Source of the DNA: a virus | Lineage: Duplodnaviria; Heunggongvirae; Uroviricota; Caudoviricetes | IMG/VR virus record: IMGVR_UViG_3300009502_000019 | Length of the DNA stretch: 33,514 nucleotides | Direction: 5' to 3' (one strand) | In this document: positions 823 to 23,432 of the stretch, one piece after another | Layout: the number at the start of each line of letters is the position of its first letter | Position numbering within the stretch: position 1 is the first letter of the stretch | Translations under genes and position numbers: made by a program | Notes under the pieces: generated by a model | Told to the model about the DNA's origin: nothing | The model's input: only the letters and a program-made list of their open reading frames with translations | The model's database searches: none

Positions 823-917
823 TGGTACACGCGGAAGGACTTGAACCTTCATATTTAGCCAGTCCGGCCAATGACCCGGGTATAAACCGGGGGGTTTACC
901 AGTTAACCTACGCGTGC
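823..917 (-). tRNA. trnI: tRNA-Ile(TAT) with 24-nt variable region
   Basis: GCACGCG/CGCGTGT, stem CCCGG/CCGGG, loop TT-TAT-AC, V-arm TTGGCC-GGACT-GGCTAA, T-loop TTCAAGT, A73-CCA; 95 nt. Confidence 0.88.
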
Positions 918-2781: not shown

Positions 2782-2856
2782 TGGTCGGAGTAGGGAATCT
2801 TGCAATCCCAACCTCTCGGTCCCGAACCGAGCGCTCTTCTTTTGAGCTACACTCCG
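2782..2856 (-). tRNA. trnP: tRNA-Pro(CGG)
   Basis: CGGAGTG/TACTCCG, loop TT-CGG-GA, T-loop TGCAAGA, CCA. Confidence 0.92.
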
Positions 2857-4208
2857 TTAAAAATATCCTGCTTTTCAGCGAGATACTTTAGATACACTTC
2901 TTTGTCTTCTCCGAGCTTTAGTTCCCCATTCGTCAGTGCCGCCATCACGAGATCCTTAAGCCTTCCAACCTCCTTACCTCCTGGAAGACTGAATCGCTCC
3001 ATGATAGACAGCCCGTCTAGTGGGCACTTAAGTTCTTTGTAGTTCTTTACTTCCTCGATCCTGTTCTTAAGGTGATCGATACGGGCTAGGTTCATTTGAA
3101 CCTTCTCTGGTCTATGGCTAGTAATATCAGCGGCACTCAGAGCGATCAGCTTGTCAAGATGGGCCCCGGTCTCGACAACGTACCTTCTTACCGCTGAATC
3201 TGACCAGTCTTCCTTGTACAGGTTCGTTCTCATGTGGTTCCGGACCAAGTACGTTACGTCCTCGATCACCTTCCGCGGCAGCCCGAGCCGACTCAAGATT
3301 GAATAAGCCATCAGAGCCGAAACCTCTTCGTGCCGGTAGAAGTGCACCCGTCCATCCCACTCAGTCTTAACGTAAGGCTTGCCGACGTCATGGAACAACG
3401 CTGCAAACCTTGAAGCTACTTCAGCCGGCGAGTTCTCAACTACTCCTACCGTATGAAGCCATACATTTTTGCTGTGGTACTTGCTGTCTTGGTCCACAGC
3501 ATTAAGTACCGTCAGCTCCGGGATGAAGTAATTGAGCAGCTTGTACTTCAGCAAGTCATTCAGAGCCTCACCAACGTACTTACCAAGCAGTATCTTGGTG
3601 AACTCGTCTAGGATTCGCTCCTTCGGCAGGAACAGAAGCCTGTGTGCTTCACTTGCTAAAGCCTCTCTTACTCCATCTGAATACAAAAACCCAAACCGCG
3701 ACTTGAACCGGATCGCCCTAAGCATCCTGAGCGGATCGTCGCTAAAGATCTCTGCCGCTTTCATAGGGGTCTCAAGGATCCCCTTTGCCAGGTGCTCCTT
3801 GCCTCCGAAGAGGTCTACTACCTCCCCATTTCGATCCATTGCCAGGGCATTGATCGTAAAGTCCCGGCGGATCAGGTCGTCCGCGATCGTTGTTCCCCAC
3901 TCCACAACCGGCCGGCGGTTATCCCTCTGGTACTTCTCGTTTTTTCTAAATGTAGTTGCTTGTATGATGTACCCATCCATAACAACTTCTATTGTTCCAA
4001 AGGCTTTTCCTACATCGTGTACTTTGTAACCTGCTTTTTGAAAGACCTTTTCAGTATCGTCTGGAAGAAGGTTAATAGCAAAATCCAGATCATCCGTGTC
4101 TTTTCCAAGCAGCTTGTCACGGACTGTGCCACCAACCAAGTATATGTCAGCGTCTTTGAATAGTGAAAATACCTTTTCTACTACCCTATCAGTGATAGTT
4201 TCAGGCAT
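2847..4208 (-). CDS. cca: CCA tRNA nucleotidyltransferase with HD domain
   Basis: YLVGGTVRD..DLDF, RRDFTINALA, DDPLRMLRAIRF, HT...FHDVGKP motifs of class II CCA/poly(A) polymerase family. Confidence 0.93.
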   Translation of the reverse strand: MPETITDRVVEKVFSLFKDADIYLVGGTVRDKLLGKDTDDLDFAINLLPDDTEKVFQKAGYKVHDVGKAFGTIEVVMDGYIIQATTFRKNEKYQRDNRRPVVEWGTTIADDLIRRDFTINALAMDRNGEVVDLFGGKEHLAKGILETPMKAAEIFSDDPLRMLRAIRFKSRFGFLYSDGVREALASEAHRLLFLPKERILDEFTKILLGKYVGEALNDLLKYKLLNYFIPELTVLNAVDQDSKYHSKNVWLHTVGVVENSPAEVASRFAALFHDVGKPYVKTEWDGRVHFYRHEEVSALMAYSILSRLGLPRKVIEDVTYLVRNHMRTNLYKEDWSDSAVRRYVVETGAHLDKLIALSAADITSHRPEKVQMNLARIDHLKNRIEEVKNYKELKCPLDGLSIMERFSLPGGKEVGRLKDLVMAALTNGELKLGEDKEVYLKYLAEKQDIFNGV

Positions 4209-5178: not shown

Positions 5179-5254
5179 TGGTGGGCTCGGCGGGCAATGA
5201 TCCCGCAACCTTCTCCTTAAGAGGGAGTTGCTCTGCCAATTGAGCTACGAACCC
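5179..5254 (-). tRNA. trnK: tRNA-Lys(CTT)
   Basis: GGGTTCG/CGAGCCC, loop CT-CTT-AA, T-loop ATCATTG, CCA. Confidence 0.92.
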
Positions 5255-5259
5255 AATAC

Positions 5260-5336
5260 TGGTGCGTCCGGCAGGAATCGAACCTACTCTTGGTCCTGGT
5301 TAAAAGCCAGGCGTCTACCCAGTCGACTTCGGACGC
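5260..5336 (-). tRNA. trnK: tRNA-Lys(TTT)
   Basis: GCGTCCG/CGGACGC, loop CT-TTT-AA, T-loop TTCGATT, CCA. Confidence 0.92.
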
Positions 5337-5341: not shown

Positions 5342-5773
5342 TTACGCAATTCTCATTACTCTAGTTGGTCTTCCTCTGCCTTTGTTTCTTGACCCATAAA
5401 ACTCTGTTAATGTGTGGCAGTTAGGGCAAAGTAGTTCTAGATTTTCTTCACGGTTGTTTTTCCAGTTACCGTCCTTATGCTCAATCTGCAAAGGAACTTT
5501 TCCTGTATAGATGTTAACCTCTGACCATTCGCATTTCGAGCACTTGCTTTTGTACTTCTCAAACAAATATTTTCTTACATGCCCAGAGATGGAGGAGACT
5601 CCTTTTCCACCATTCTCTAGCCCCTGCTTCCATCGACGTATGTACAAATCATATGCAGTCTTATTTTTAACTCTGACCACATGTCTGTTTCCACACATAC
5701 GAGAACAAAATAGCCGATGACATTTCCTAGAAGAAAACTCTTTTTTACATTCGTTACATACATATGTATGCAT
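5342..5773 (-). CDS. HNH endonuclease
   Basis: Likely start MHTYVCNEC (GAGG SD; the ORF-track extension overlaps tRNA-Cys); LQIEHKDGNWKNNREENLELLCPNCH. Confidence 0.87.
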   Translation of the reverse strand: MHTYVCNECKKEFSSRKCHRLFCSRMCGNRHVVRVKNKTAYDLYIRRWKQGLENGGKGVSSISGHVRKYLFEKYKSKCSKCEWSEVNIYTGKVPLQIEHKDGNWKNNREENLELLCPNCHTLTEFYGSRNKGRGRPTRVMRIA

Positions 5774-5787
5774 TATATTACCCTCAG

Positions 5788-5874
5788 TGGAGACGGCTGT
5801 CGGACTTGCACCGACGTGTGGATTGCTCCAACAGGTTTTGCAGACCTGCACATTCGCTGCTCTGTCAAGCCGTC
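5788..5874 (-). tRNA. trnC: tRNA-Cys(GCA) with long variable arm
   Basis: GACGGCT/AGCCGTC, loop CT-GCA-AA, U73, V-arm TGGA-GCAA-TCCA, T-loop TGCAAGT; 87 nt. Confidence 0.88.
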
Positions 5875-5875: not shown

Positions 5876-5964
5876 TGGAAGCGGAGATGGGAGTTGCACC
5901 CATCAGCTGCTTTTGGCAGCTCCGGCTTATGAGACCGGTTAGCCCACTGGGGCTCGTCTCCGCA
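5876..5964 (-). tRNA. Non-canonical CAT-anticodon tRNA with long V-arm and 5-bp D-stem
   Basis: (T)GCGGAG/CTCCGC(T), D-arm AGCCC-CAGT-GGGCT, loop CT-CAT-AA, V-arm AGCTGC-CAAAA-GCAGCT, T-arm ATGGG-TGCAACT-CCCAT, U73-CCA. Confidence 0.8.
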
Positions 5965-5974
5965 ATGAATAATA

Positions 5975-5988
5975 CTTTTCAAAAAACA
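5975..5988 (-). promoter_or_regulatory. Degenerate boxA-like element
   Basis: TGTTTTTTGAAAAG, one core mismatch to TGTTCTTTGAAAA. Confidence 0.35.
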
Positions 5989-5991
5989 AAC

Positions 5992-6065
5992 TGGCGGGCC
6001 AGCAAGGTGACGCTCCCTGGTCTTCGGTTTTGGAGACCGACGTTCTACTGTTGAACTACTGACCC
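5992..6065 (-). tRNA. trnW: tRNA-Trp(CCA)
   Basis: GGGTCAG/CTGGCCC, loop CT-CCA-AA, T-loop AGCGTCA, G73-CCA. Confidence 0.9.
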
Positions 6066-6073
6066 ATAACTTT

Positions 6074-6164
6074 TGGCGGTGGGTAGACGAGTCGAACGCC
6101 TAAAGGGCTATTAACCCTTAACCGGGTTCAAGCCGGTCGGACCTGCCAATGTACCAAACCCACC
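6074..6164 (-). tRNA. trnS: tRNA-Ser(TGA)
   Basis: GGTGGGT/ACCCACC, loop CT-TGA-AC, long V-arm, G73-CCA. Confidence 0.9.
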
Positions 6165-6340: not shown

Positions 6341-6427
6341 TGGCGGAGGAGGTGGGGTACGATCCCACATGCCTTTTACAGCACCCGCGTTCCAGGCGGG
6401 CGAGCCACCAAATTGCTCAACTCCTCC
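6341..6427 (-). tRNA. trnS: tRNA-Ser(GGA)
   Basis: GGAGGAG/CTCCTCC, loop CT-GGA-AC, V-arm, T-loop ATCGTAC, CCA. Confidence 0.92.
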
Positions 6428-6429: not shown

Positions 6430-6520
6430 CGGCGGAAGACGTCGGTGCTGCCCCGACCAGACGTTTGCACGTCTCCAACTTAGCAGGTTGGCCCAGCTAA
6501 CTGATATCTGGCTGTCTTCC
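6430..6520 (-). tRNA. trnS: tRNA-Ser(GCT), genomic 3' end CCG
   Basis: GGAAGAC/GTCTTCC, loop CT-GCT-AA, V-arm AGACGT-GCAA-ACGTCT, T-loop GGCAGCA. Confidence 0.9.
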
Positions 6521-6528
6521 ATAAAAAT

Positions 6529-6813
6529 ATTTGAGAACTATAACCCGGGTTCTGTAGTTACCTTTCAGTAACTGCTAATCATCTGTCTAAGCTCCAAACC
6601 CGCTACTATTGACTGAGTAAGTCAGTAGCCTATTTTGGATTGCATCATGCAAGGATTGCCAACGTTTCACTCCCACTAAAGGGTTTCGTCACTGTGGCTC
6701 TATACTCTCAGTCTTTCAACTGGTCAAAGTTATTAGCTTTGATGCACTACTCTTGATGCCCGGAGTTTCCTCGAATATCCATTGCAGATACCCGCGATTA
6801 GCCGTTCTCAAAT
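6529..6813 (-). ncRNA. rnpB: RNase P RNA (compact bacterial-type)
   Basis: P1 ATTTGAGAAC/GTTCTCAAAT; P4 strands GAGGAAACTCCGGGC (6772-6758) and ACAGAACCCGGGTTA (6555-6541) with a compensatory C-G; GCCACAG, GTGAAAC, GGCAATCC, CAAAATAGG and AGACAGATGAT conserved blocks in the right order. Confidence 0.9.
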
Positions 6814-7490
6814 TTTACTTTAATGCATCCACAATTAAACATCCTACCTCGTATCCATCCTTCTTTCGTATAACCTTGAAGTGCGTCTTCTGTAACAAGT
6901 TTAGATTGGTGTAGTTTTACATTTGAAATCCACTTCTTACCCTTCCAGCTGTTCCGATTTTTTCCGTTAGTACAACCCCCCGATCCTGGAAAAAACTTTC
7001 TACCTCTTATCCAACCATTATTGATATAGTCTGAAAACTCTTCTTTATTAGCCCATCTAGATTGTTTTAATTGTAAGTTAGATATCCACTTGTGCTCTGC
7101 CGTTCGTCCAACTTTTCCAAACATTCCATTCTTTTTACCCGCATGATTTCCATGACTAGCACTTTCTTTCATCTTCTTTCTAGTTTCTTCTGAAGCTTTC
7201 CAACCAGGACAACCGTCTCCGCCATCAGCTAGGTTATATACGTTATCTTTTCCAATGTAATTTCTGCACTCAGCGACATACTTTATTTCTAGCATGTCTA
7301 ATGTAATTTTATCATTAGCATACTCTATTGCTTTTACACGAAAATTATGTTTACCGTACTTTTTGATGGCTTGCTTTAAGTAAGATCCACTACCAAAATA
7401 TTTAGGATTAAACTTACCTTTCTTTTGACCAACATACAGTTTACCATTGACCAAGTTAGTAGTCAGATAAACATATCCGTACATGTTCAT
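6798..7490 (-). CDS. GIY-YIG homing endonuclease
   Basis: Likely start MNMYGYVYLTTNLVNGKLYVGQ (GGAG SD); YFGSG, YNL..GG, SEETRKKM; two C-terminal KWISN...GWIRGR repeats. Confidence 0.88.
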   Translation of the reverse strand: MNMYGYVYLTTNLVNGKLYVGQKKGKFNPKYFGSGSYLKQAIKKYGKHNFRVKAIEYANDKITLDMLEIKYVAECRNYIGKDNVYNLADGGDGCPGWKASEETRKKMKESASHGNHAGKKNGMFGKVGRTAEHKWISNLQLKQSRWANKEEFSDYINNGWIRGRKFFPGSGGCTNGKNRNSWKGKKWISNVKLHQSKLVTEDALQGYTKEGWIRGRMFNCGCIKVKFENG

Positions 7491-7500
7491 AGCACACTCC

Positions 7501-7527
7501 AAAAAAAGAAGGGCACCTTTCGGGTGC
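7501..7527 (-). terminator. Intrinsic terminator-like hairpin in leader of GIY-YIG gene
   Basis: GCACC-CGAAA-GGTGC followed by CCTTCTTTTTTT. Confidence 0.5.
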
Positions 7528-7612
7528 TTGTAGGATATCCGGTTATGGCTATCCAACCCTACGGGTGCCCTAAAAATAGGCATAAAAATACCGAAGTCCT
7601 ACAAGCAACTGC

Positions 7613-7641
7613 ATTATACCGCGTTTTGGAGCAAAAGTCAA
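7613..7641 (-). promoter_or_regulatory. sigma70-type promoter P2
   Basis: TTGACT-17 bp-TATAAT. Confidence 0.85.
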
Positions 7642-7660: not shown

Positions 7661-7734
7661 TGGCGGTCCATGGGAGAATTAAACTCCCGCTTTAAGCGTG
7701 ACAAGCTTACGTGCTATCACTACACCAATGAACC
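7661..7734 (-). tRNA. trnD: tRNA-Asp(GTC)
   Basis: GGTTCAT/ATGGACC, loop TT-GTC-AC, T-loop TTTAATT, G73-CCA. Confidence 0.9.
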
Positions 7735-8324: not shown

Positions 8325-9275
8325 CTATTTTTTGATGCTCCGGATGATATCTAGGAGCTGACCTGTCCGCACGTCATTAGAGTGATGCTTACGTATATGG
8401 GCCATCCCATTAGCTGCAATGCCCCTAGCGAACTCTCTATCAGCTAATATCTTAGCCGCTAAGCTAACAAGATCCGACTGGTCCTTCTTAAACTTTACGC
8501 ACGTGCCATCTGGAAAAATCTCATCAATACCTGAGAACATGTCAGTGAGTAGAACTGCTCCTGATGACATTATCTCAAATGTCTTCGCAGCGGTTATATC
8601 ATAAATCGAGCTGCATGACAAGAACGCGATGTTTTTCTTTAGAACATTTATGTACCCCTCATCCACGATCATCCTGTAGTTAACGATGTAATCATAATTC
8701 GATAACGTCTGAATAGCCCTGTTTCTGTCCGGGTATGCTGTGTTAACAGAGCTGCCAACAAATGCTATTTTGTTAACTCTGTCGATCGATACTGGTGCAA
8801 ACACTTCGGTATCTACGGAGAATGGAAGCCACGCGTTTGGTACTTTTCCTTTGCGAAGGAACTGTGAGTGGTGACGCTGCAGCAGCAGATCAAACCCCTT
8901 CTCCTTATACCAGTCGTCGTTCTTTTCGTAGTGGTAGTCTTCCTCTATCATTATCTTCGGTTCTTTGATCTCTTCGAATCCGCTTGGTATCCAACAGTTC
9001 TTTTGAACACCGGTGTGTGGCGAATAAGACTCAAACATGCGGCTCTTTGTGTTGCATATGACTGCGTCATACGGAAACATGGCTTTTAAGTCGTACATGG
9101 TAATCTTACTGTCGTACGGGATCGTAGCTACGTCAGCGTACCCCTTCTCAAGGTCCATCCCGTATGCAAGCAGCTTTACTCCAGGGTACTTAGCGATGGT
9201 ACGTGCGTACTCCATGTGAAACCACTTGTCGAAGTTGTATTCGGGTATGTACTTATAGAACCAAAGTATGTTCAT
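8325..9275 (-). CDS. Glycosyltransferase, CgeB/Glyco_trans_1_2-like
   Basis: GT-B C-terminal AKTFEIMSSGAVLLTD...IRKHHSNDVR; paralogue of 14776..15756. Confidence 0.75.
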   Translation of the reverse strand: MNILWFYKYIPEYNFDKWFHMEYARTIAKYPGVKLLAYGMDLEKGYADVATIPYDSKITMYDLKAMFPYDAVICNTKSRMFESYSPHTGVQKNCWIPSGFEEIKEPKIMIEEDYHYEKNDDWYKEKGFDLLLQRHHSQFLRKGKVPNAWLPFSVDTEVFAPVSIDRVNKIAFVGSSVNTAYPDRNRAIQTLSNYDYIVNYRMIVDEGYINVLKKNIAFLSCSSIYDITAAKTFEIMSSGAVLLTDMFSGIDEIFPDGTCVKFKKDQSDLVSLAAKILADREFARGIAANGMAHIRKHHSNDVRTGQLLDIIRSIKK

Positions 9276-10153
9276 CGAAATGTCCCAAAGATGGCTTTGT
9301 GTACTTTCGGCCAGACCTGAACTTCATTTAGAAGGATGTGCCTGGCTTCTGACAGTTCTGGCAGGTGCTCTTCATAGAACCTGCTGTTTATGATATTTCT
9401 TACGTCGTCCCCGTGCCCGTTGATGTCGAGGTACTTAAACGAGGTAGCCGGTAGAACTTTGTGGACTCCGCGCCCTCCCCAGTAGATCGGCATAGCCCAG
9501 AGAAGCATGCAGTCAAGGATCCTCTCTGAGAAGTAGTGCTCGCCAACATTGTCAAACTCAAGCATGTATTTGTACTGCTCATACACAGGCTCTTTTCCGG
9601 ACCAGTAGTCTCCGGCATGCTGCACTGAGTACTGCCCGCAGGCCCCTTTGTAATGTGAAACAAGACTTCCGAATGGCCGTATTCGTCCGTAGATGTCTAG
9701 AATACCCGGGTTCTGTGAGCACATACGCTCCAAGAACTCTCTCCTGACTCTGTGGCTGTCGTCGCTAGAAGAGTTGCTTACGATCGTACCAAGTAGCTTC
9801 GTCTTTGGCATTGGCTGCAATTTAGACAGGTAATCGTAATCATAGGTAATCCACCACTCCAAAAACCCTAACGTATGTTTACAATCAAACTTTGCTAAGG
9901 CATTAAACCCATCCATGTCTTGGTAGTACTTGAGCGTCTCCGGGTGTGCTCCGAGAAACACACACTTGTTCTCCGGAATGTGGCTGTAGTCTGACGTTAG
10001 CTTGTCAATTACGGCGTAGCAGTCCGCTTCATCCAGATTACCCGTTCCAACAAGGTTCCCCCAGACGCCTGAGCGCCCGGGGGTCATCTTGCGAAAGGTA
10101 TCCAGGAGCTTTTGGGGCTGTTCACTGTTACCTATGAACGCCAGTTTTTTCAT
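9272..10153 (-). CDS. GT10 (alpha-1,3-fucosyltransferase)-like glycosyltransferase
   Basis: YKYMLEFDN...YFSERILD...AMPIYWG resembles the GT10 nucleotide-sugar motif. Confidence 0.7.
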   Translation of the reverse strand: MKKLAFIGNSEQPQKLLDTFRKMTPGRSGVWGNLVGTGNLDEADCYAVIDKLTSDYSHIPENKCVFLGAHPETLKYYQDMDGFNALAKFDCKHTLGFLEWWITYDYDYLSKLQPMPKTKLLGTIVSNSSSDDSHRVRREFLERMCSQNPGILDIYGRIRPFGSLVSHYKGACGQYSVQHAGDYWSGKEPVYEQYKYMLEFDNVGEHYFSERILDCMLLWAMPIYWGGRGVHKVLPATSFKYLDINGHGDDVRNIINSRFYEEHLPELSEARHILLNEVQVWPKVHKAIFGTFR

Positions 10154-10818
10154 GGGTTTTCCAGTTTTAGAAGTTTTCTGAAATACTTGTCCATAACCAA
10201 AAGTATTTTTACTTTTGGGTACAGTTTTTTAAATAGTTCGAACTTTTCCTTATCCGGTCCCCTCCAAAATCCTTTAAATTCTATATATGTACACATCATC
10301 GGAGTGTAAAAATCTGGGGTGTAGGTACTATCTCCCAAGTCAAATACCTTCGGTTCGTATTCCCATACTACCTTTTTACGGTCTAAGTATTCAGCAAAAG
10401 CTGCTTCTCGTTTTGATCGAAACCGTACTCCATTGTAGAATATACGCTTTCCGTGGTGAGCTATTTTACCAAACATGGGGTTGTTTTTTCCAGACATCCG
10501 TAGACTTTGGCTAGGATTTGGAACCCCAGCTCGACAGCATTTTCTACACTTTGAATACTTAACCTTCCCTTTTCTAAAAGCATACTTGCTTAAAAGAACA
10601 CCACATCCAGTGCAATGGACTTTTGGGTTCTTTCGTAGCAAGTACATATGATACCTGCAATGTTTTGCAATTTTGCTTTTTAAAGAGTCTCCGCAGACCC
10701 TACACTTTTTATGAATAGATTTTTTATACCCAGGGTGGTTCTTGCCAACATATAGACCGTTCTTCGCACTACAGATACAACAAGAACAGCCCTTCTTATG
10801 CGGATTTGAATTACCCAT
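10150..10818 (-). CDS. Free-standing PD-(D/E)xK endonuclease with Cys-rich/NUMOD N-terminus
   Basis: Likely start MGNSNPHKK (coupled to licD stop); FRSKREAAFAEYLD...WEYEP...YTPDFY..IEFKG. Confidence 0.75.
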   Translation of the reverse strand: MGNSNPHKKGCSCCICSAKNGLYVGKNHPGYKKSIHKKCRVCGDSLKSKIAKHCRYHMYLLRKNPKVHCTGCGVLLSKYAFRKGKVKYSKCRKCCRAGVPNPSQSLRMSGKNNPMFGKIAHHGKRIFYNGVRFRSKREAAFAEYLDRKKVVWEYEPKVFDLGDSTYTPDFYTPMMCTYIEFKGFWRGPDKEKFELFKKLYPKVKILLVMDKYFRKLLKLENP

Positions 10819-11425
10819 TGTTAATATTGTACTTTTTATTCTTATTAGGAGTACGCCAGTTTTTGTCATACATAAGTTCAAGCCACTCCTCGATGTGGTT
10901 CGGGATCTTGAACGTGACACCCCGGAATACGAAGTCTTGAAGCTCATCGTAGTACCTCGCCGGGTGCTTCAGCTGATACCCGCAACGCGGCTTATCATAG
11001 ACGTAATAGTCACCTTCCTTCTCAAACCACCATCCCTCGATCTTCTCCCCGTTACGAATGAAATTCGTGTCGTAATAAGGGGCGTTGTCGTTTGTGATCG
11101 GCTTTGTTGGATCCCCCTCGGTGACGATGTACCCGGCAGCCCGCATTTCGTCGATAACGGGGTAGATACGTGTCCTTTGTGAGAAGTCGAGAGCAATGTC
11201 CACGTCATCGTCCCAGGCGATGAAATTCTGGTCCCGGTAGGCGCCAAGCATCGTTCCGTGCGACAGCCAATGCTTGATTCCGTGCTTGGTCAAGCAGGCG
11301 CTGACCTCGCAAAGGTTGTTAAACAGAGCATCCCTATCGATAGGGCGGGTACGGCCCCCTGCCTGACCTCGTTCCCATATCGGTAAATGTTTGCTCCAAA
11401 TATCTAAATTGGGGTTCAGATCCAT
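10811..11425 (-). CDS. licD: LicD-family nucleotidyl/phosphotransferase
   Basis: WLSHGTMLGAYRDQNFIAWDDDVDI motif. Confidence 0.85.
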   Translation of the reverse strand: MDLNPNLDIWSKHLPIWERGQAGGRTRPIDRDALFNNLCEVSACLTKHGIKHWLSHGTMLGAYRDQNFIAWDDDVDIALDFSQRTRIYPVIDEMRAAGYIVTEGDPTKPITNDNAPYYDTNFIRNGEKIEGWWFEKEGDYYVYDKPRCGYQLKHPARYYDELQDFVFRGVTFKIPNHIEEWLELMYDKNWRTPNKNKKYNINNG

Positions 11426-11964
11426 TACGCGCCTCGCTTCCTTTCTGAGAAAACTACACCTTCCAGTTCAAGCACCGACACGTTCAATCCCTCGCAGATA
11501 TCGCGTACGTGCTGAACACACTTGAAGAACTCATCGTTGTCCTTCTTAACGTTTAGATACAAGTCTTCCTTGTCGAGCATGAGCATCTTTATACCACAAT
11601 CATAGATGATTTCACCAAGCCTTTTGATGCCCATTTTGGTCTCGATCTTGGGAACGAACTGCACGGTGGGCGGGAGCTTCGCCTGGATCTCCTTCACAAT
11701 GCTGACCTTCTCGATGTTCGATACCGCGAAGTACTTTACGTTCTTCCACTTCGCACATAGGTCGTAGGCTGTTTCCATAGCAATAACAGGGGTCGGGGGC
11801 TTTGTCCTGCCCTGGGGGTAGTCAAGAAAGACATCCTTGTCCTCGTTAGTCTTTAGAATCTGCTCCAGTTCCTCGACAGTATTAACCCAAGCCATGTTGA
11901 TACGAATGACAGAGTCGTTTGGAAGTGCCATGTATTTCTGTAGGTTATTTGATACGATTATCAT
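11425..11964 (-). CDS. Minimal pyruvate-kinase-barrel / HpcH-like protein
   Basis: IRINMAW, FLDYPQGRTK, FVPKIET, LMLDKEDL align by eye to PK barrel motifs (RLNFSH, LDTKGP, KIE, MVARGDL); no B/C domains. Confidence 0.55.
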   Translation of the reverse strand: MIIVSNNLQKYMALPNDSVIRINMAWVNTVEELEQILKTNEDKDVFLDYPQGRTKPPTPVIAMETAYDLCAKWKNVKYFAVSNIEKVSIVKEIQAKLPPTVQFVPKIETKMGIKRLGEIIYDCGIKMLMLDKEDLYLNVKKDNDEFFKCVQHVRDICEGLNVSVLELEGVVFSERKRGA

Positions 11965-12220
11965 TTTTCTTTACCCTTATGTAGAGAGTTATGTAAAAGA
12001 CAGTTGTTAAAATTGCGATCACGTACTTTATTACGAGAGGGTTTTGCCGGATGAGGATGGCATACCAAAGGGCGATTACGTTGCCGACCAGGTACATAAC
12101 GTACAGGAGTAGACTCACGCCATCGACGCACTTGGTTTTCACCGTCTTTATGATCTGAGGCACAATCACCACAGAGAATATTACAGTTGCCGTCCATCCA
12201 AGAATATCAGGTAGGCTCAT
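11945..12220 (-). CDS. PQ-loop (SemiSWEET-like) membrane protein
   Basis: Three hydrophobic helices, PQIIKTVKTKCVDGVS. Confidence 0.8.
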   Translation of the reverse strand: MSLPDILGWTATVIFSVVIVPQIIKTVKTKCVDGVSLLLYVMYLVGNVIALWYAILIRQNPLVIKYVIAILTTVFYITLYIRVKKNDNRIK

Positions 12221-12611
12221 TTTTTATCCGCTCAATTATTTTAGATGTTGATGTGCCGTCATACCTGGACAAGTTTAGGCGCTTTGATTCCGGTATTTCA
12301 TAAAGATTTGCTATGTGATGCTGGTCTTCTCCGACTACGATCAGGTCGCACGTATCGAGAATGTCTTTAGGTATGCGAAACTCGTCCACTCCAACGGTCT
12401 CTCGGACACATCCGAGAGCGCTTATGATAGCCATGCGTTCGTCAAAAGGAACTATGGGACGCGATGGCCCTTTCTGGCGCTTTACGGCTTCATCAGTAAC
12501 AACTCCGACAATAAGCCACCCTTCTCCGCTCCCCTGGTAGGCATTATACAGTAGGTTCAAGTGGCCGAAGTGGAACAGATCCCATACCCCCAAGCAAAAT
12601 ACTTTTTTCAT
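12207..12611 (-). CDS. HxGH cytidylyltransferase (TagD/RfaE-II-like)
   Basis: GVWDLFHFGHLNLL, KGPSRPIVPFDER, GTSTSKII. Confidence 0.88.
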   Translation of the reverse strand: MKKVFCLGVWDLFHFGHLNLLYNAYQGSGEGWLIVGVVTDEAVKRQKGPSRPIVPFDERMAIISALGCVRETVGVDEFRIPKDILDTCDLIVVGEDQHHIANLYEIPESKRLNLSRYDGTSTSKIIERIKNEPT

Positions 12612-12612
12612 G

Positions 12613-13569
12613 TTACAAGCTCCTTAGTTTGTTGTAGATGAACGGCCACGTTTGAAGTTCGTTTAGAAGAATATGCCTGGCTGCTGCAATGTCCTTTATG
12701 TGGCTCTCGCGAAATGTGCTGTTAACAATATTGACGGCCCGCTCAGCTTCTTTTGTTACACCTTCCAACGGCCCATCTATCCTAACATACGCGAAAGAGT
12801 CCTTCGGGACAAACTCGTGTACATTGTCACCACCAAAGTAAATAGGCATGGTCCACAGAAGCATGCTGTCGTAAAATCTCTCTGATAGATAATTATGCAC
12901 TGGCCTTCCGGTAAACATCACTCCAACATCAAAGTCTAGCGCGTACCGGTAGTCTACTTCTATGTCTTTGCCTACAAAGTGGTCTCCGACAGACACATCC
13001 ATGGTGGATGCAGGTATGCCGGCTACCCCACGATAGAACTTGTTTATAACTGGATTACTCATGAACTTCGAGTCTTGCCTTCCAAAGATGTCTATGTTGT
13101 CTGACTTCTTAACGTATTCCTCCAGGAACCTGATACGCTGGCCGTAGGTCGGGCGGTCGATGCTGTCTTCCTGATAGGTAGTGATGCTTATAACGTCCTT
13201 GCTCTTCTTTGGAGGAGTCATTGCCATAAGTGCATCATAGTCATGGCTAATCCACCACTCGCCAGGGTTGAGGCATGTATCGTTCGGAAACACTGCAATA
13301 GCTCCAGGCACGTTTGTCATCGCATGGTAGGACCTGACACCTTTCGGATGCTGCGCAAAGCACACTACCCTGTCCCTTGGAATAGGGTGAGCATCCAGGG
13401 GAAGAGGACCGTCCATGCAAACAACATAGTCAGCCGCGAAAGGATCGGTTACAGCCTCCATACTTTCCCAGCGACCAGACTTTTTTGGTGTCATTTTTAT
13501 AAGTGTTCTCAGAAGAGCCGTCGGATCTTTAAAATGCTGCGACACGAAACACACTTTAAACTGCTTCAT
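12613..13569 (-). CDS. GT10-like glycosyltransferase (paralogue of 9272..10153)
   Basis: YRYALDFD...YLSERFYDSMLLWTMPIYFG; shared EWWI..DYD.L motif. Confidence 0.7.
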   Translation of the reverse strand: MKQFKVCFVSQHFKDPTALLRTLIKMTPKKSGRWESMEAVTDPFAADYVVCMDGPLPLDAHPIPRDRVVCFAQHPKGVRSYHAMTNVPGAIAVFPNDTCLNPGEWWISHDYDALMAMTPPKKSKDVISITTYQEDSIDRPTYGQRIRFLEEYVKKSDNIDIFGRQDSKFMSNPVINKFYRGVAGIPASTMDVSVGDHFVGKDIEVDYRYALDFDVGVMFTGRPVHNYLSERFYDSMLLWTMPIYFGGDNVHEFVPKDSFAYVRIDGPLEGVTKEAERAVNIVNSTFRESHIKDIAAARHILLNELQTWPFIYNKLRSL

Positions 13570-14133
13570 TTAGATACTCTCTCTATACACTTGTTCAAGC
13601 CGGAGTCTTATTTTTGTTGCTTGGCGAAGTATTCGGTCTTTGTTTCTGTCCTTTATCTTCTTAATAGGAACACCCGCGTATACGGACCACGGGTCAAGTT
13701 TCGAGAATGCCGGAACCCAACTAAGCCCTCCAATAACTGTTCCCTCAGGTATCACCGTTCCTGGCATTATGACGGAGTTAGTTCCTACACCACAGTAGTC
13801 TCCGATAGTCACATCTCCAGAGCACATCTCCATACCAATGTCGTAGTCTGGCGCTAATATAACAAGGTCATTAACGAAGTCGTTACTGCCACAATAGATC
13901 TTCACGCCGGATGCGATCGACCCGAAGTCACCCATTGTAAACTGCCTGTCTTTTCCTCCAGCGATAACGCAGGATGCCGCTACGTGAGACATCATCCCGA
14001 TCTTTACCTTAGTAGAGAAGTAACAAAAGTCGTCCACTACGGAGTGGTCTCCAACGACAAAGAACTCCGGATGTCTGATACGCGTGTTACTAGATACAAT
14101 GTTCCTGATGCGCATACCGTTAGATAGCATCAT
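13570..14133 (-). CDS. Hexapeptide-repeat (left-handed beta-helix) acyltransferase
   Basis: Likely start MMLSNG (GGAG SD); VTIGDYCGVGTNSVIMPGTVI, VYAGVP. Confidence 0.85.
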   Translation of the reverse strand: MMLSNGMRIRNIVSSNTRIRHPEFFVVGDHSVVDDFCYFSTKVKIGMMSHVAASCVIAGGKDRQFTMGDFGSIASGVKIYCGSNDFVNDLVILAPDYDIGMEMCSGDVTIGDYCGVGTNSVIMPGTVIPEGTVIGGLSWVPAFSKLDPWSVYAGVPIKKIKDRNKDRILRQATKIRLRLEQVYRESI

Positions 14134-14779
14134 TGGGGTTCTCCGAACGGGGAACAGCAAGCCCCTCTTTTTCGATGTAGCTTTTAGCGTCCTCAGTCCA
14201 CACACCTTTAGTAATGGGGTTCTTCTGCCATATGGATATAAGCGGCTCCTTCATAGAGAAGTTCTTAGCACCTGGGATAGTCCTCGTGTGAGCGTTCTGC
14301 TCAAACTGCCACACGTTCTCATCAGGTCTTACAAAGTTCTTGAAGTAGTCCCTACGCCAAAGAGACGGCTGAAGAGACGCCACGTAGTAAGCCGTGTCTG
14401 GTATTACGTCTAGCATACTCTCTTCTTTAGCAGCTTCCGCAGATACATTTAGCCGTATCTGGTCGGCGAGTCCTTGGCGAACTAAATTAACCAGAACATC
14501 CATAAGGAACACATTGACCGATTTACAGATCCAGTAGTCTTCGACCATCATAAGTAGAATAGGTTCGGGTATCCTGTCGAGAGCCACAAGCATACCGTTT
14601 GACCATCCCGTATCAGGGCCTACCTTTACCGACTCCCCGGCTGGTGCATCCTTAAAATTAGTAACGAAGTATAACTTGCAGGAGCACTCCGGCCAGTACT
14701 TACGAAGTCCGTGCATGAAAACAGGCCACGCCCGCGAATATTTGTCACAGCTTGTCACTACTAAGGCAACGTCGTTCAT
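14120..14779 (-). CDS. Putative GT-A glycosyltransferase
   Basis: LVVTSCDKY..W, LMMVEDY acidic motif; cluster context. Confidence 0.5.
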   Translation of the reverse strand: MNDVALVVTSCDKYSRAWPVFMHGLRKYWPECSCKLYFVTNFKDAPAGESVKVGPDTGWSNGMLVALDRIPEPILLMMVEDYWICKSVNVFLMDVLVNLVRQGLADQIRLNVSAEAAKEESMLDVIPDTAYYVASLQPSLWRRDYFKNFVRPDENVWQFEQNAHTRTIPGAKNFSMKEPLISIWQKNPITKGVWTEDAKSYIEKEGLAVPRSENPNDAI

Positions 14780-15756
14780 CGGTACTTCTCTATAAAAGCT
14801 AAGAGCTCCTTGATTCGTATCTCATGGGTATGCCTGGTGTTTATGCAGTGAATAGCTCTGTCAACAACACTCTTACGCAAGGACTCATCTCGCAATATCT
14901 GATTTGCTTTATCGCTAAGATCCCGCCAGTCGTTTTCGTATGTTATATAGCTTCCTTCATCTAAGACAGTCTCTATCCCGGTGAACTTGTTTGTGAATAG
15001 CACTGAGCCGCACGCCATGATCTCAAACGTTTTGGCGGACGTCAGGTTGTATTTAGACCCACAGGATACATGGCTAACATACTCATGCATACACTTGATG
15101 TAATCGTCAAACACGCGCTCTCTGCTTCTAAACACGTCTATAATGTTGCTTCGCTGAAGCATTGTGTGGGCTACAAACCTCTGTGGGTAGCAGTCAGGGC
15201 TTGACGCGCCCACAAAGCAGAACTTGTTCTTTCGCGCCCCGTAGTACGGTGTAAATATGCTCGTATCCACGGAGAACGGAAAGAACTCAACTGGAACTGT
15301 TTGCATCCTAAGGGACTGGCTAAAGTGCTTCTGAAGAACCACTGTTATCCCCATGCTCCTGTGCCAGTCGTAGCTAGCCTCGTAGTGAAAGTCTTCTTCA
15401 ATACATATCTTACGAATCGGGTACGTGGCGAAGTCAAGTGGAAGCCAGCAGTACCCAACGTCTCCGTTTCTGTCCGGAAACAGCGACACCGGGAAGTAGT
15501 TTGGGTGATATGCGGCGGCACGCGTGTTTAGGATGATCACATCTATTTTTAGTTTGTCTATGATGTACTCCATGGTAAGAGAGAAGTTGAACGGGATCGG
15601 CACAATCGACTTATCCCCTTTAAACATCTCATACATGTTTGGACCGTAGATAAACAGGTCGTCAACGTACTTTTTCACCTCAAGCGCGAAATCCGTGTGG
15701 AGCCACTTATCACACTTGTTGACCCTACTGAAGTGATCTATCCAGAGTATTCTCAT
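14776..15756 (-). CDS. Glycosyltransferase, CgeB/Glyco_trans_1_2-like
   Basis: AKTFEIMACGSVLFTN...RHTHEIR; IEEDFHYE shared with 8325..9275. Confidence 0.75.
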   Translation of the reverse strand: MRILWIDHFSRVNKCDKWLHTDFALEVKKYVDDLFIYGPNMYEMFKGDKSIVPIPFNFSLTMEYIIDKLKIDVIILNTRAAAYHPNYFPVSLFPDRNGDVGYCWLPLDFATYPIRKICIEEDFHYEASYDWHRSMGITVVLQKHFSQSLRMQTVPVEFFPFSVDTSIFTPYYGARKNKFCFVGASSPDCYPQRFVAHTMLQRSNIIDVFRSRERVFDDYIKCMHEYVSHVSCGSKYNLTSAKTFEIMACGSVLFTNKFTGIETVLDEGSYITYENDWRDLSDKANQILRDESLRKSVVDRAIHCINTRHTHEIRIKELLAFIEKYR

Positions 15757-16487
15757 GTCAGATCTCCATAGTACACAGGGACAGGACCCTGCGGGTTTCC
15801 AACTAAGCCACCGATAAGAGCTAGACGACGCTCCATTTCAGCTTTGTTCCTTAAAAACACACCCATAAGGTGAGTGTTGTTAACAAACAAAGTGTCTTGA
15901 GTGTACTTATGGAACTGGTGAGTTACTGTATATGGCATGTTCTCTTTGTTGTGCTTGTGCCTCTCGCAGATCTCGCGATCCTCACAGCCGTACCCATCAA
16001 ACCCCTCGCACATCCCACCAGACTTGAAGAACTCCGCTTTCTTTATGCAGAATCCTATGCCAAATATGTCCTCTTTGTAATACTCAAGGCGGTCTGCTCC
16101 TCCCTTTTCTGTCTCTCTGAGTACAATGTTAAATGGGACAAACACATAATTTTTTGTGCTATTCATGTACTCAAACACTGTCTTTAGGTAATCTCTGTCC
16201 GTAATGATGTCTGCATCCATGACAAACAGCCACTCGGCTGATGAGTTCCTTGCCGCGACATTAATGAACCAGGATTTGCAGAACAGATCACGGTGTGGGA
16301 GCGTCACCACCTTATCCGCCAACTTTTCAAGGCTTGGGTGGCTGGCGTCCATGTCTCGCACGATTATGAGCTCGAACATGTCTCTTGGAAGTGACTGAGC
16401 TGATATAGATTGCAGCGTGGCGTTAAACAGTCTTAGCCGGTCCTCCTGCTTGCCGTACCAGCAGAATATGAGCGAAAACTTAGGCAT
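15753..16487 (-). CDS. GT2/GT7-like glycosyltransferase
   Basis: FVMDADII (DxD), GGMCEGFDGYGCEDREI. Confidence 0.8.
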   Translation of the reverse strand: MPKFSLIFCWYGKQEDRLRLFNATLQSISAQSLPRDMFELIIVRDMDASHPSLEKLADKVVTLPHRDLFCKSWFINVAARNSSAEWLFVMDADIITDRDYLKTVFEYMNSTKNYVFVPFNIVLRETEKGGADRLEYYKEDIFGIGFCIKKAEFFKSGGMCEGFDGYGCEDREICERHKHNKENMPYTVTHQFHKYTQDTLFVNNTHLMGVFLRNKAEMERRLALIGGLVGNPQGPVPVYYGDLT

Positions 16488-17565
16488 AGAACTCCTTAAT
16501 TTTACTGCACACAGCTATTAGTTGATCATTTGTAAGCCCCGGAGATGAGGGAAGCCACAGACCCATGGAGGACATCTTGGTCGCTACAGGGAAGTCCATT
16601 CCGTAAAAGCTGTATATCTTTTGGCTGTGGATCGCGGGGTAGATAGGACGTGTTTTAATACCAGCGTCGAGCAGGAACTTCGCTAGATCTTCGCGATTCT
16701 CAACATAGATGTCAATAAACCACGGTGTGACATAGCTTAGATCCATGTCAAGCATGGTAACCTGCGAAACTTCTCTTAGAGCACACTCATACATGAGGTA
16801 CATCTCTCGTTTCCTAGCTATCCTTGTGTGAATGTCTCTGAACTGGCTTAGCCCAACTATTGCCTGAAGCTCTGTGAACTTGCAGTTTACTCCGAACTCG
16901 TCATGAATATCGAGCCCGCCTCCGGTGCGTCCAAAGTCCTTAAGTTTTTTGATCTTGTCGGCAACTTTATCATCATTGGTTACAAGGCACCCACCCTGCC
17001 CCGTAGTGATTATTTTAGGCATAGAGAAGGAAAATGACGACACGTCACCATACCTCCCGATGCGTTCTCCGTTGGAGTAGCGCGACCCTAGAGACTGGGC
17101 GTCGTCAGATATGTACGCCAAGTTGTGGAGGAAGCAGAACTCCTTAATTAGGCTTGGATCTACGTGGCTTCTGCCGTGTAGCGTTACATAGATTATTGCC
17201 TTAGTCTTGGGTGTAATCTTGTCCCGGGCCTTGTCTAAGTTCATGCATAGCGTGGTAGCGCTTACGTCAACAAGCACTGGAGTAGCTCCGATGAACCTCA
17301 CTGCGTTTGGAGTCGCGATCATGGTTATATCAGGGACAAGTACCTCGTCTCCTGGCCCAACACCCATCGCGAGCAGAGCTAGGGACAGGCTGATAGTACC
17401 GTTATTGACCATAAAGCAATGTTTTACCTCGAGAAACTCTTTGATCTTGTTCTCAAACTCGGCAGTCTTTTTGTACTCAGTTATGTACCCACCGGAGTCA
17501 AAGTACTCGCTAAATCGTGCTTTCAGGTCGGCTGTGTCAAGCAAAGGCTCAAATTGGTTGATCAT
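16480..17565 (-). CDS. DegT/DnrJ/EryC1/StrS PLP-dependent sugar aminotransferase (perosamine synthase-like)
   Basis: NNGTISL, DDAQSLG, FSFSMPKIITTGQGG. Confidence 0.92.
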   Translation of the reverse strand: MINQFEPLLDTADLKARFSEYFDSGGYITEYKKTAEFENKIKEFLEVKHCFMVNNGTISLSLALLAMGVGPGDEVLVPDITMIATPNAVRFIGATPVLVDVSATTLCMNLDKARDKITPKTKAIIYVTLHGRSHVDPSLIKEFCFLHNLAYISDDAQSLGSRYSNGERIGRYGDVSSFSFSMPKIITTGQGGCLVTNDDKVADKIKKLKDFGRTGGGLDIHDEFGVNCKFTELQAIVGLSQFRDIHTRIARKREMYLMYECALREVSQVTMLDMDLSYVTPWFIDIYVENREDLAKFLLDAGIKTRPIYPAIHSQKIYSFYGMDFPVATKMSSMGLWLPSSPGLTNDQLIAVCSKIKEFYA

Positions 17566-18134
17566 AGCTTCCTTGCCACTACCCCTATCATTGGGTAGTC
17601 GTGTTTTACGACAGTTTTAAACTGCACCTTCCAGGAGTCCCCAAGAAGTTCTTTAATTGTTTTACGCGTGTACCCCCACTTGTGTGTTGAGTACTCGTTC
17701 TTTTGGTTACAGTAGATAAGCTCCATCAACCATTCAGGGTCTGTCTTGTAGTGCTTGCGAACGTCTTCGTGTATGTCTGGAAAGTCAAAAATAAACCTTC
17801 CTCCAGACACAAGTACTCGCCTGGCTTCCCCTACGATGTGAGCAGCGTCCCGCTTCGTAAAATGCTCAATGGCAGAGATCATTACTATCTCATCAACCGA
17901 GTTGTTGCTGAAGTCCATCCAGTTCTCAGTGAGGTTCATTTTCTTATCGACAATACACTCTCCGCGTGTTCTCTTAGAAAACTCCGTAGAAAATGGTCTC
18001 GTGAAGTACCTGTCTAGTGTAGTGAGGTTTGGATTGGCTTCCCCCTTGCGCAGCTTCCTTCCGCCGATATCGACGTTAATGTGCCCGCTAAGGTATACGT
18101 CTCCACAGCAAAGATGAACCTTCATGCTTCCCAC
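17562..18134 (-). CDS. Class I SAM-dependent methyltransferase-like protein
   Basis: VHLCCGDVYL, SVDEIVMISAIEHF, RRVLVSGG. Confidence 0.7.
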   Translation of the reverse strand: MGSMKVHLCCGDVYLSGHINVDIGGRKLRKGEANPNLTTLDRYFTRPFSTEFSKRTRGECIVDKKMNLTENWMDFSNNSVDEIVMISAIEHFTKRDAAHIVGEARRVLVSGGRFIFDFPDIHEDVRKHYKTDPEWLMELIYCNQKNEYSTHKWGYTRKTIKELLGDSWKVQFKTVVKHDYPMIGVVARKL

Positions 18135-18880
18135 CTCTTTAGTTTATCTCTGAACTCCTCGAACTTGTCCTTCCTGCACCACACATTGGCCATGCGATCG
18201 GAGTCTTTGCAAAGAAACACGTACCCTAGTGGGGACAGCCTGGCATCAGCCTCGTCCTCCCACACGTTGTTGCAGTAAAAGCATATGAGCTCTGTGTTTG
18301 ATAAGTTTCTCTTGAGAGTTGCATACGTGGCGTAGTCCCACTCAGGGTTGCTTTTAAACACCTCGGAAACAGGCCCAATCCCAGGTGAGATGAAGCAAAA
18401 CCTGGGTGCGGAGCAGTTATGTATGATAACTGGGTTGGCAGCGAAGTTGTTAACTTGGCACGTAGCACCGGCGGCTACCATCATGTCGTCAAACAGCTGC
18501 CGCGGACACTCACACCATGCGTCTATCGTGTGAAAGTTAGTAAACCCAGACTTTGCCAGGAAATAGATAAAGCTTCCTGATCCGGCGCCAACATCTTCTA
18601 TTAGGATATCTTTCCTGTCTTTATATAGCTCCCGGATAACAAACAGCGGCAGGTAGTGTGATATGTTAAATGGAAGCTTGTACTCGGGCCTAAAGTTTAT
18701 GACAGGATCTAGTTTTGGGTACGTTCTAGAGGGCGGTATTAGCCTGTAAAACCCTGGATCAAAGTAGGCGTCGTGCTCAGTTCTTACATTCGGGTACGTG
18801 TAGTGGACATCGATTAGCTTTGCGACATGTGGCGCAAGCTCGTCAATCCAGTTTATGTCTTTGAGTATGTTCAGTATCAT
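18122..18880 (-). CDS. Putative methyltransferase-fold protein
   Basis: LIEDVGAGSG motif I only. Confidence 0.45.
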   Translation of the reverse strand: MILNILKDINWIDELAPHVAKLIDVHYTYPNVRTEHDAYFDPGFYRLIPPSRTYPKLDPVINFRPEYKLPFNISHYLPLFVIRELYKDRKDILIEDVGAGSGSFIYFLAKSGFTNFHTIDAWCECPRQLFDDMMVAAGATCQVNNFAANPVIIHNCSAPRFCFISPGIGPVSEVFKSNPEWDYATYATLKRNLSNTELICFYCNNVWEDEADARLSPLGYVFLCKDSDRMANVWCRKDKFEEFRDKLKRWEA

Positions 18881-19476
18881 TTTAAGATGGCTCCCATCTC
18901 ATATCCAATGTGAACTCGCGGAAGATCCATCTTCTTGTATCCCTCAAGACTTCTCCACCACTTAAAGGCCTGTGGGTAGTGCTGCTCTGACAAAATGTCA
19001 TCCAGGAACATGTACCCGCCATCTTTAAGCTTAGGGTAGTACAACGCTAATTGGTTGTTTAGAAGATCTATGTCTCTGTCTGTATCAACGAAAATTACCC
19101 CCAAGTCGTTAGGTATTTTTTCCGCAATACGCTTATCCAGCACATCACCAAAGATGAACTCTATGTTTGACACCCCTTGTGTATATTGTGCTGAGTTTTG
19201 GATTTGACACATGTTGTTATCTATCGTGTATATCTTAGTACTGGGGCAGGCCTTAGACATAAATAGTGCAGACACCCCGGAATGTGTTCCAAGCTCTAGC
19301 ACTGTCTTAGGCTTTAGCCTTCGCAGTACCTCGTACAGGAACTCATAATGGTTTGACGGTACCCCAGGCCAGTCTTTGTACAGTTCAGTCTTTACTGCCG
19401 TAAGCTCCGGGTCGTCTACAGCAAAAGTTTGAACGTAGTCTTGGACTTCCAGTAGAAACGGGTCGGATACTGTCAC
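18877..19476 (-). CDS. Class I SAM-dependent O-methyltransferase-like (Methyltransf_24 type)
   Basis: VLELGTHSGVS, IFVDTD, LKDGGYMFLDD. Confidence 0.8.
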   Translation of the reverse strand: MTVSDPFLLEVQDYVQTFAVDDPELTAVKTELYKDWPGVPSNHYEFLYEVLRRLKPKTVLELGTHSGVSALFMSKACPSTKIYTIDNNMCQIQNSAQYTQGVSNIEFIFGDVLDKRIAEKIPNDLGVIFVDTDRDIDLLNNQLALYYPKLKDGGYMFLDDILSEQHYPQAFKWWRSLEGYKKMDLPRVHIGYEMGAILK

Positions 19477-19859
19477 AGCATGTCGCTCGCTATCTTTGTA
19501 CTATTAAAGTCATCAACGATCTTACGAAACTCAGCGTGCTTGTTTTTCTTTTCCTCTGGGTCAGCTCCCCACTCAAGCACCACTGAGCTATTTATGGACA
19601 GGAAGTAGTGCGGAGTTCCTCGCGGGATCCTGAGTGTGTCTCCGGCACCCATAATAAACACTTCCTTACTTTTACCGAGAACATACTCAATCTCTCCCTC
19701 AACTACACAAGCAAACTCATCATGAATGTCGTGTTGACACCCACCTCGTGCAAATCCGGCGTTTGTCTTAAAGACAGTAACCTCTTTAAACATGTTTAAA
19801 TCGCCGAGCAGAAGACTTATAGATCCGCGGGCATCCGAGTGAATAGTCTGTAGCTCCAT
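19473..19859 (-). CDS. Cupin-fold protein (sugar epimerase/isomerase-like)
   Basis: DARGSI, RGGCQH...E, IPRGTPHYF. Confidence 0.7.
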   Translation of the reverse strand: MELQTIHSDARGSISLLLGDLNMFKEVTVFKTNAGFARGGCQHDIHDEFACVVEGEIEYVLGKSKEVFIMGAGDTLRIPRGTPHYFLSINSSVVLEWGADPEEKKNKHAEFRKIVDDFNSTKIASDML

Positions 19860-19945: not shown

Positions 19946-19948
19946 ATG

Positions 19949-22558: not shown

Positions 22559-22560
22559 TG

Positions 22561-22893: not shown

Positions 22894-22942
22894 AGTGGCC
22901 TCACTCTATATTACGGCTGTTTCAAGAAAAAATTATGAAATA

Positions 22943-23386: not shown

Positions 23387-23432
23387 TGGCCTTACCACCC
23401 CCTCCGAAGTGGAGGGGGTGTATCTAAACTAC

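Follow-up and report, generated by a model that had tools for sequence, protein, structure and literature searches.

RNase P RNA is the ribozyme that trims the 5' ends of newly made tRNAs. To our knowledge it has been regarded as a cellular and organellar molecule, and in the textbook picture phages supply substrates for this enzyme, not the enzyme itself. Several reduced forms are known. Archaeal type-A RNase P RNAs lack P13, P14, and P18 and are more dependent on protein. The minimal bacterial RNase P RNAs include that of Mycoplasma fermentans (~276 nt) and the deletion constructs Micro P and Min 1; RNAs stripped of peripheral helices in this way still cleave pre-tRNA, usually with more salt or protein. 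Those of organelles (red-algal plastids and the glaucophyte cyanelle) are reduced type-A molecules, typically weak or inactive without protein.

Phages are known to encode HDV-like theta ribozymes, which adjoin tRNA genes and have been proposed to free phages from the tRNA-processing enzymes of the host (PMC10879173). The same paper treats RNase P as a host function (PMC10879173), and a 2024 review of the field, which speaks of tRNAs encoded by phages, names no RNase P RNA of phage origin (PMC11143913). Our search of the full-text literature, most subscription journals being outside its reach, found no description of a phage-encoded RNase P RNA.

The DNA analyzed here (the window) is 33,514 nucleotides long. 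It corresponds to bases 8187-41700, read on the reverse strand, of a 46,801-base IMG/VR record that is classed as 'provirus' and is ~40% complete. The window encodes a reduced bacterial type-A RNase P RNA. The ribozyme is a known one, but its carrier is new; it is naturally reduced, and a base pair in P4 is flipped in a lineage-specific manner. We consider it likely that the RNA is functional and phage-borne, that it is excised from the transcript of a tRNA array, and that it works with the RnpA protein of the host. Coordinates are collected in Table 1.

An Rfam scan of the whole window returned a single strong match other than tRNAs, to RNaseP_bact_a (RF00010). The score of 134.2 bits (E 3e-41; curated gathering cut-off 100 bits) covers model positions 1-367 and is far beyond chance. 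At the same site the archaeal model (RF00373; cut-off 84) reached 64.4 bits and the type-B model (cut-off 97) 90 bits. Because the bacterial type-A score exceeds its cut-off and the other two fall below theirs, we assign the RNA to the bacterial type A. The original prediction, made by eye from the sequence, had called an RNase P RNA of ~285 nt at 6529-6813 without stating the strand. The identification stands, and the gene is now refined to 289 nt on the minus strand, ending at 6525.

A Python check of the Rfam alignment gave 17 helices with 88 pairs, each of them canonical, counting those of the two pseudoknots P4 and P6. The core helices P1-P5, P7-P11, and P15-P17 are kept. The 43-nt block of RF00010 that holds P13/P14 is reduced to 2 nt, and the 24-nt block of P18 to 0 nt. 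P12 is a 3-bp stub, wholly missing from the closest relatives, and a 5-bp hairpin occupies the position of P19; inserts like it occur in some other phage RNase P RNAs. The by-eye reading of this architecture (no P13, P14, or P18, a very short P12, and a P19) was thus correct. The window RNA does not have the full set of P12, P13, P14, and P18, which are typical of type A and not universal. The missing elements are struts rather than core, and the RNA is a reduced variant. With residues numbered from an alignment to the annotated E. coli rnpB, A65-A67, U69, A248, G292-U294, and G350-A352 are unchanged.

Compared with E. coli M1 RNA (rnpB, 377 nt), the phage RNA has the same P1-P5, P7-P11, P15-P17, P4/P6, L15 GGU, A248 in J5/15, and J11/12-J12/13 platform. 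It is 88 nt shorter, lacks P13/P14 and P18, has only 3 bp of P12, carries an extra hairpin at the P19 position, and has the C-G flip; its gene lies inside a tRNA array, whereas the E. coli gene is a solitary chromosomal one. In outline it resembles archaeal type-A RNAs, but its sequence signatures are bacterial (64.4 bits for the archaeal model versus 134 bits), so the likeness reflects convergent reduction. The minimal RNAs noted above are cellular or artificial, and the Mycoplasma one is type B, whereas the phage RNA is a natural viral derivative of type A. Organelle RNAs were inherited vertically from a cyanobacterial ancestor, whereas this RNA sits among the virus's own tRNA genes. Theta ribozymes are small self-cleavers with a proposed role in 3'-trailer removal, in contrast to RNase P RNA, a trans-acting, multiple-turnover enzyme of tRNA 5' ends.

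The Rfam consensus structure used here does not show the P4 pseudoknot as pairs. In the window RNA its strands form eight pairs around the bulged U50, and the equivalents of A65-A67 and G350-A352 are conserved. The E. coli pair G68-C358 is C49-G270 in the window RNA, a true two-sided flip, as proposed from the sequence when a compensatory change in P4 was first noted. The pair covaries within the clade, being C-G in 6 of 10 sequences and G-C in the other 4. The P6 pseudoknot (GAGUA with UACUC) has 5 bp and is also changed in a compensatory way in relatives (GAGCA with UGCUC). The P15-P16-P17 arm, a type-A feature, is present.

In E. coli, G292, G293, and U294 of L15 pair with the 3'-RCCA of tRNA (PMC11143913). 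We identified the equivalent GGU in the 3' strand of L15, which reads C-GGGU-U (GGGUU) and supplies G214, G215, and U216. The original prediction had L15 reading AAU in place of GGU, and this was a misassignment: the AAAUAG concerned is the ordinary conserved 5' strand of the L15 (P15/P16) internal loop and agrees with the Rfam consensus. Retention of the GGU fits the array, as CCA is encoded by all 22 tRNAs that ARAGORN called in the 46.8-kb record. The elbow-binding platform consists of two interleaved T-loops, J11/12 and J12/13, in which the equivalents of E. coli A130/C131 and A180/A181 have an elbow-binding role (PMC11143913). Both segments are at consensus in the window RNA. At the level of sequence, the preservation of GGU and platform together would argue for canonical substrate docking.

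Evidence for selection on the structure comes from related RNAs. We projected the window structure by pairwise alignment onto four relatives (L075, L134, L092, and L102) that are 74-80% identical to the window RNA. The projected structure pairs at 91-97%, compared with 29-39% after the 3' partners are shifted by 1-3 nt. Among the pairs that changed on both sides, 14-17 per relative are still paired, and pairing was lost in 0-1 (binomial p about 1e-6 to 1e-7 versus a chance pairing of 0.375; the four relatives are not independent of one another, and each spans its divergence from the window). The two-sided changes include two pairs of P4 as well as P6. RNAalifold, applied to ten clade sequences, recovered P1, P3, P4, P5, P8, P15, and P16, and 25 of the 40 pairs show compensatory changes. 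The covariation analysis of homologues that had been suggested as a check therefore came out in favor of a maintained fold. The CCA-adding enzymes encoded in the window and in L092 are only 28% identical, compared with about 75% for the RNAs, so the RNA is held far tighter than the neighboring protein.

To place the RNA among its relatives, IMG/VR was scanned with a two-block P4 pattern that allowed any base at the flipped pair and a gap of 160-250 nt. Both P4 strands were found in 20 contigs of up to 463 kb, 17 of which carry 3-35 co-oriented tRNAs in the fetched locus. A cruder search of IMG/VR, with a 15-mer carrying the P4 variant, gave 65 matches; none had the partner strand downstream, and all were rejected as chance. 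A second pattern, derived from the window's J18/2-P2-P4 region, was used on metagenome contigs and on one genome per prokaryotic species, and its matches form two groups. Full-size RNAs (n = 60; 30 from named cellular genomes, including Lentisphaerota, Saccharibacteria, Bacillota, and Spirochaetia, and 30 from metagenomes) have at least 247 nt between the P4 strands and carry G-C at 68/358, with 0-2 tRNAs in the vicinity. Reduced RNAs (n = 8) have a core of 172-201 nt, and those on contigs long enough for context are accompanied by 15-27 tRNAs. The C-G flip occurs in five of these eight; in two of the five (L096 and L117, very small array RNAs) the adjacent P4 pair is flipped with it (GAGGAACCUCC with CCGGGGUA). 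Overall, the core between the P4 strands measures 228 nt in the window, 172-271 nt in array loci, and 247-386 nt in sampled cellular RNAs. Within one bacterial phylum (401 genomes), 88 genomes had the two-block pattern in its canonical form and none had the flipped form. Because the flip is absent from the sampled cellular RNAs, it marks the array-embedded lineage in everything sampled.

Members of the window's clade score above the Rfam threshold (L092, 143 bits; L134, 141 bits; L075, 136 bits). More stripped array lineages fall below it (62-85 bits, with the L117 RNA at 62), yet they align over the full length with E values of 1e-16 or better. These RNAs form a reduction series, with the window RNA at its mild end. 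Identity to cellular RNAs is 0.64-0.76 across Saccharibacteria, Lentisphaerota, Bacillota, and others, singling out no donor or host. A blastn search with the window RNA and two other phage variants gave no phage match among 50,697 GenBank phage records; the lone match was a Salmonella chromosome contig filed there. No relative was returned from viral contigs with the CCA-adding enzyme as query, tblastn with a structural protein gave no match, and Terminase_6N had no match in five related records.

The surroundings of the RNA are conserved as well. In all six clade members that bear a specificity domain (L075, L119, L134, L092, L102, and L123) the ribozyme lies between tRNA-Asp(GUC) and tRNA-Ser(GCU). 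The window has the same neighbors, the sole difference being a GIY-YIG endonuclease gene inserted after tRNA-Asp. In the relatives the RNA starts a few nucleotides past the CCA of tRNA-Asp, and the distance from the P4 3' strand to the start of the next tRNA is 18-27 nt in 19 of 28 loci, which corresponds to P1 plus a few nucleotides. Clade contigs encode tail tube, baseplate hub, DNA ligase, endolysin, and another CCA-adding enzyme right by the array. In the sampled sequences, the clade is confined to phage-type tRNA arrays. No RnpA was found in three near-complete phage genomes that carry such RNAs (463, 203, and 202 kb). In the closest relatives a gene for a 492-aa 'RNA-binding protein' (phrog_850) adjoins the tRNA array (L119 1261-2739 and L075 389-1867, minus strand).

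In the window, the ribozyme is embedded in, and co-oriented with, an array of ~28-30 tRNA genes on a phage-type record, in agreement with its first description as lying inside a tRNA array. Gaps of just 1-5 nt are common between the tRNAs, which end in CCA. Five homing endonuclease genes, three of the HNH and two of the GIY-YIG type, and one gene for a CCA-adding enzyme break up the array. As the ARAGORN-called tRNAs all encode CCA, the presence of this enzyme suggests 3'-end repair, not synthesis. The UAA stop codon of the endonuclease gene next to the ribozyme is formed by RNA nucleotides 14-16, within the P2 strand, and the insertion leaves the ribozyme intact. On the other side, 4 nt past the Rfam end of the ribozyme and 8 nt past P1, begins a tRNA-Ser(GCU)-like gene that both ARAGORN and Rfam missed. 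Its cloverleaf combines an acceptor stem of 7 bp with a long variable arm and the T-loop GGCAGCA; its 3' end is GCCG, not CCA, and lies 2 nt before the next tRNA. Directly upstream of the ribozyme no convincing promoter was found, and counts of promoter-like and terminator-like sites were not above those in shuffles. The promoter-like site upstream of the endonuclease gene, a consensus match, would read through into the ribozyme and the downstream tRNAs.

The remainder of the window is given over to a block of genes on one strand, for sugar-modifying enzymes and for proteins without an assigned family, and the flank of the record has collagen-like tail-fiber genes. No capsid or terminase genes, housekeeping genes, or RnpA gene were found in the 46.8 kb. 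The sugar block (8325-26547, minus strand) includes several glycosyltransferases, a DegT-type aminotransferase, a nucleotide-sugar epimerase, and a sialyltransferase-like protein; after it come three proteins of 651-721 aa that match no PHROG. The search of sequencing runs listed no RNA run containing the gene. In a wastewater run whose library is recorded as RNA-Seq, with 6% of words present, contigs cover only the tRNA-like stretch 5900-6160 and leave the ribozyme uncovered.

Table 1. Features of the RNase P RNA locus (window coordinates unless a locus is named; RNA positions count from the 5' end of the ribozyme).
Feature	Position	Strand	Basis
RNase P RNA gene, bacterial type A, reduced, 289 nt	6525..6813	-	RF00010 134.2 bits over full model; 17 helices, 88 pairs canonical
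P4 5' strand, RNA 47-55; bulged U50 (E. coli U69), C49 replacing G68	6759..6767	-	Rfam and rnpB alignment, pair check
P6 pseudoknot, J5/7 strand GAGUA, RNA 62-66	6748..6752	-	Pairs with P17-loop UACUC
J11/12, RNA 119-130, first half of elbow-binding platform; A119/C120 = E. coli A130/C131	6684..6695	-	Rfam alignment
P12 stub CCC-UUUAGU-GGG, 3 bp, 6-nt loop	6672..6683	-	Rfam alignment and pair check
J12/13 GUGAAA, RNA 144-149; A147/A148 = E. coli A180/A181	6665..6670	-	Rfam and rnpB alignment
P6 pseudoknot, P17-loop strand UACUC, RNA 195-199	6615..6619	-	Pair check, relatives
L15 GGU, RNA 214-216 = E. coli G292 G293 U294, site pairing with tRNA 3'-RCCA	6598..6600	-	Rfam and rnpB alignment
P19-position hairpin GUUAC-UGAAAG-GUAAC, perfect 5 bp, between P2' and P4'	6557..6572	-	Pair check
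P4 3' strand, RNA 265-272; G270 replacing C358	6542..6549	-	Rfam and rnpB alignment, pair check
tRNA-Asp(GUC), conserved upstream neighbor of the ribozyme in the clade	7661..7734	-	
Promoter-like site TTGACT-17-TATAAT upstream of endonuclease gene	7613..7641	-	11/12 consensus match only
GIY-YIG homing endonuclease gene, between tRNA-Asp and ribozyme	6798..7583	-	phrog_314 7.6e-30, PF19835
Class-II tRNA-Ser(GCU)-like cloverleaf	6433..6520	-	Fold -37.1 kcal/mol, z -2.7; clade synteny
tRNA-Ser(GGA), next array gene	6341..6427	-	
CCA-adding enzyme (tRNA nucleotidyltransferase with HD domain), within array	2847..4208	-	phrog_2244 1e-70; PF01743, PF12627, PF01966
Free-standing homing endonuclease genes in array (five)	1580-2086, 2074-2811, 5342-5851, 6798-7583; L003 491-1174	- (window genes)	
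Example tRNAs with odd T-loops	5179-5254, 1278-1353, 6341-6427	-	

The original prediction also suggested that the ribozyme is tuned to altered elbows in its tRNA substrates. The elbows are altered: T-loops deviate from the canonical TTCRANN in 10 of the 22 tRNAs of the record (three with an A54/U58 swap, three with G55 (TGCRA), three with U56 (TTTRA), and one AGCGUCA). Clade relatives are similarly odd, with a canonical fraction of 0.33-0.46, and the trait is common to the arrays of L075 and L092; in the L081 lineage 14 of 14 tRNAs have canonical T-loops. The tuning itself is unsupported, since the elbow platform is at consensus and the size of the specificity domain does not correlate with T-loop deviance across 19 phage arrays (Spearman rho -0.26, p 0.29). 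The A54-U58 swap occurs in Lys(CUU), Val(GAC), and Ser(GGA), whose T-loops read ATC.T.., an apparent swap of the T54-A58 reverse-Hoogsteen pair.

Other readings of the RNA were weighed. The tRNAs with odd T-loops could be poor substrates for the RNase P of the host, and the reduced ribozyme could be adapted to them. Such T-loops are shared by the clade relatives but not by other phage lineages, and the lost P13/P14 and P12 are braces of the specificity domain. We nevertheless find this reading doubtful: the elbow-stacking residues match the consensus, canonical T-loops make up 93-100% in phages whose ribozymes are far smaller and lack most of the specificity domain, and co-occurrence of the two traits in a single clade amounts to a single evolutionary event. 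It is likewise rather unlikely that the strut-less, P4-flipped RNA co-evolved with private tRNAs so that their maturation became partly orthogonal to host RNase P. The RNA might also have some other role, as a decoy that titrates host RnpA or competes with the RNase P RNA of the host, or as a structured spacer for array processing. With no phage RnpA found, it must share or take the host protein, and the loss of P18 suggests weak intrinsic catalysis. Such roles would leave the catalytic and substrate-binding residues (bulged U69, A248, L15 GGU, elbow platform, and P6 pseudoknot) needlessly preserved, and we regard them as improbable.

Two further readings, a decaying relic and a cellular gene, have still less in their favor. 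A captured host rnpB in decay would account for the ~80 nt lost relative to cellular type-A RNAs and for the sub-threshold scores of related lineages (62-85 bits). Decay is very improbable, however, for an RNA with all 88 pairs intact, 14-17 compensatory double changes versus 0-1 breaks, and far better conservation than a neighboring protein, and from which whole peripheral helices have been cleanly removed. The 'provirus' class of the record and the many sugar-metabolism genes of the window could instead point to a cellular gene, either host rnpB in the flank of a mis-bounded provirus or the gene of a small-genome bacterium. We consider this extremely unlikely, as the RNA sits in a co-oriented array of 28-30 tRNAs with five homing endonucleases, its synteny is common to contigs with tail genes, reduction, array embedding, and the C-G flip are all absent from the sampled cellular RNAs, and the 46.8 kb contain no housekeeping genes.

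For a functional phage RNase P RNA working with host RnpA, we propose the following pathway. The ribozyme would be transcribed together with the tRNA array, in the window probably from the promoter of the inserted endonuclease gene. It could be released like a tRNA unit, the RNase P cut at +1 of tRNA-Ser(GCU) also making the 3' end of the ribozyme; these two ends are 4-8 nt apart, so that one RNase P cut may serve both. Because the 5' end of the window ribozyme abuts an mRNA, not a tRNA, its 5' maturation would need a further cut. The RNA would most likely assemble with host RnpA, which we assume to be the likeliest partner because no RnpA is encoded in the record or in the three near-complete phage genomes. 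Deletion of P18 from E. coli RNase P RNA reduces the rate of RNA-alone cleavage >3000-fold and leaves binding unchanged (PMC11143913). By analogy, the window RNA is probably protein-dependent and may be a poor catalyst alone. The assembled enzyme would then cut the short (1-5 nt) leaders between the CCA-ending phage tRNAs, whose close spacing may be likened to that of the dimeric T4 tRNA precursors discussed previously (PMC11143913).

During infection, the phage may benefit from additional RNase P capacity or from not having to rely on the host enzyme. Possible reasons for a phage copy include the capacity required for ~30 tRNAs, a host enzyme that is shut off or targeted, and private substrates. 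Why a phage duplicates an essential host ribozyme (capacity, host shut-off, evasion of defense, or private substrates) is a testable question. A viral, naturally minimized type-A RNA would extend the list of translation-related functions of large phages. The array lineages provide a natural deletion series, from the mild form to RNAs with no specificity domain, in which the role of the peripheral helices can be asked. The flipped P4 pair and the fixed Asp-ribozyme-Ser synteny are simple markers for finding further members of the clade.

Other RNA features were noted in these arrays. In the window, tRNA-Ile(UAU) (823-917, minus strand) is 95 nt long with an insertion of ~20 nt in the variable region, and tRNA-Cys (5788-5874) is also long, at 87 nt. 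A sub-threshold tRNA-Sec-like match (34.6 bits) lies at 5881-5963, and a weak Y-RNA-like match (24.6 bits, well below the cut-off) at 5230-5287. The tRNA arrays of two other large phages with RNase P RNAs have matches to tmRNA, one in L077 (1-209; 55.8 bits, cut at the locus end) and one in L081 (4494-4569; 41.3 bits, below the cut-off).
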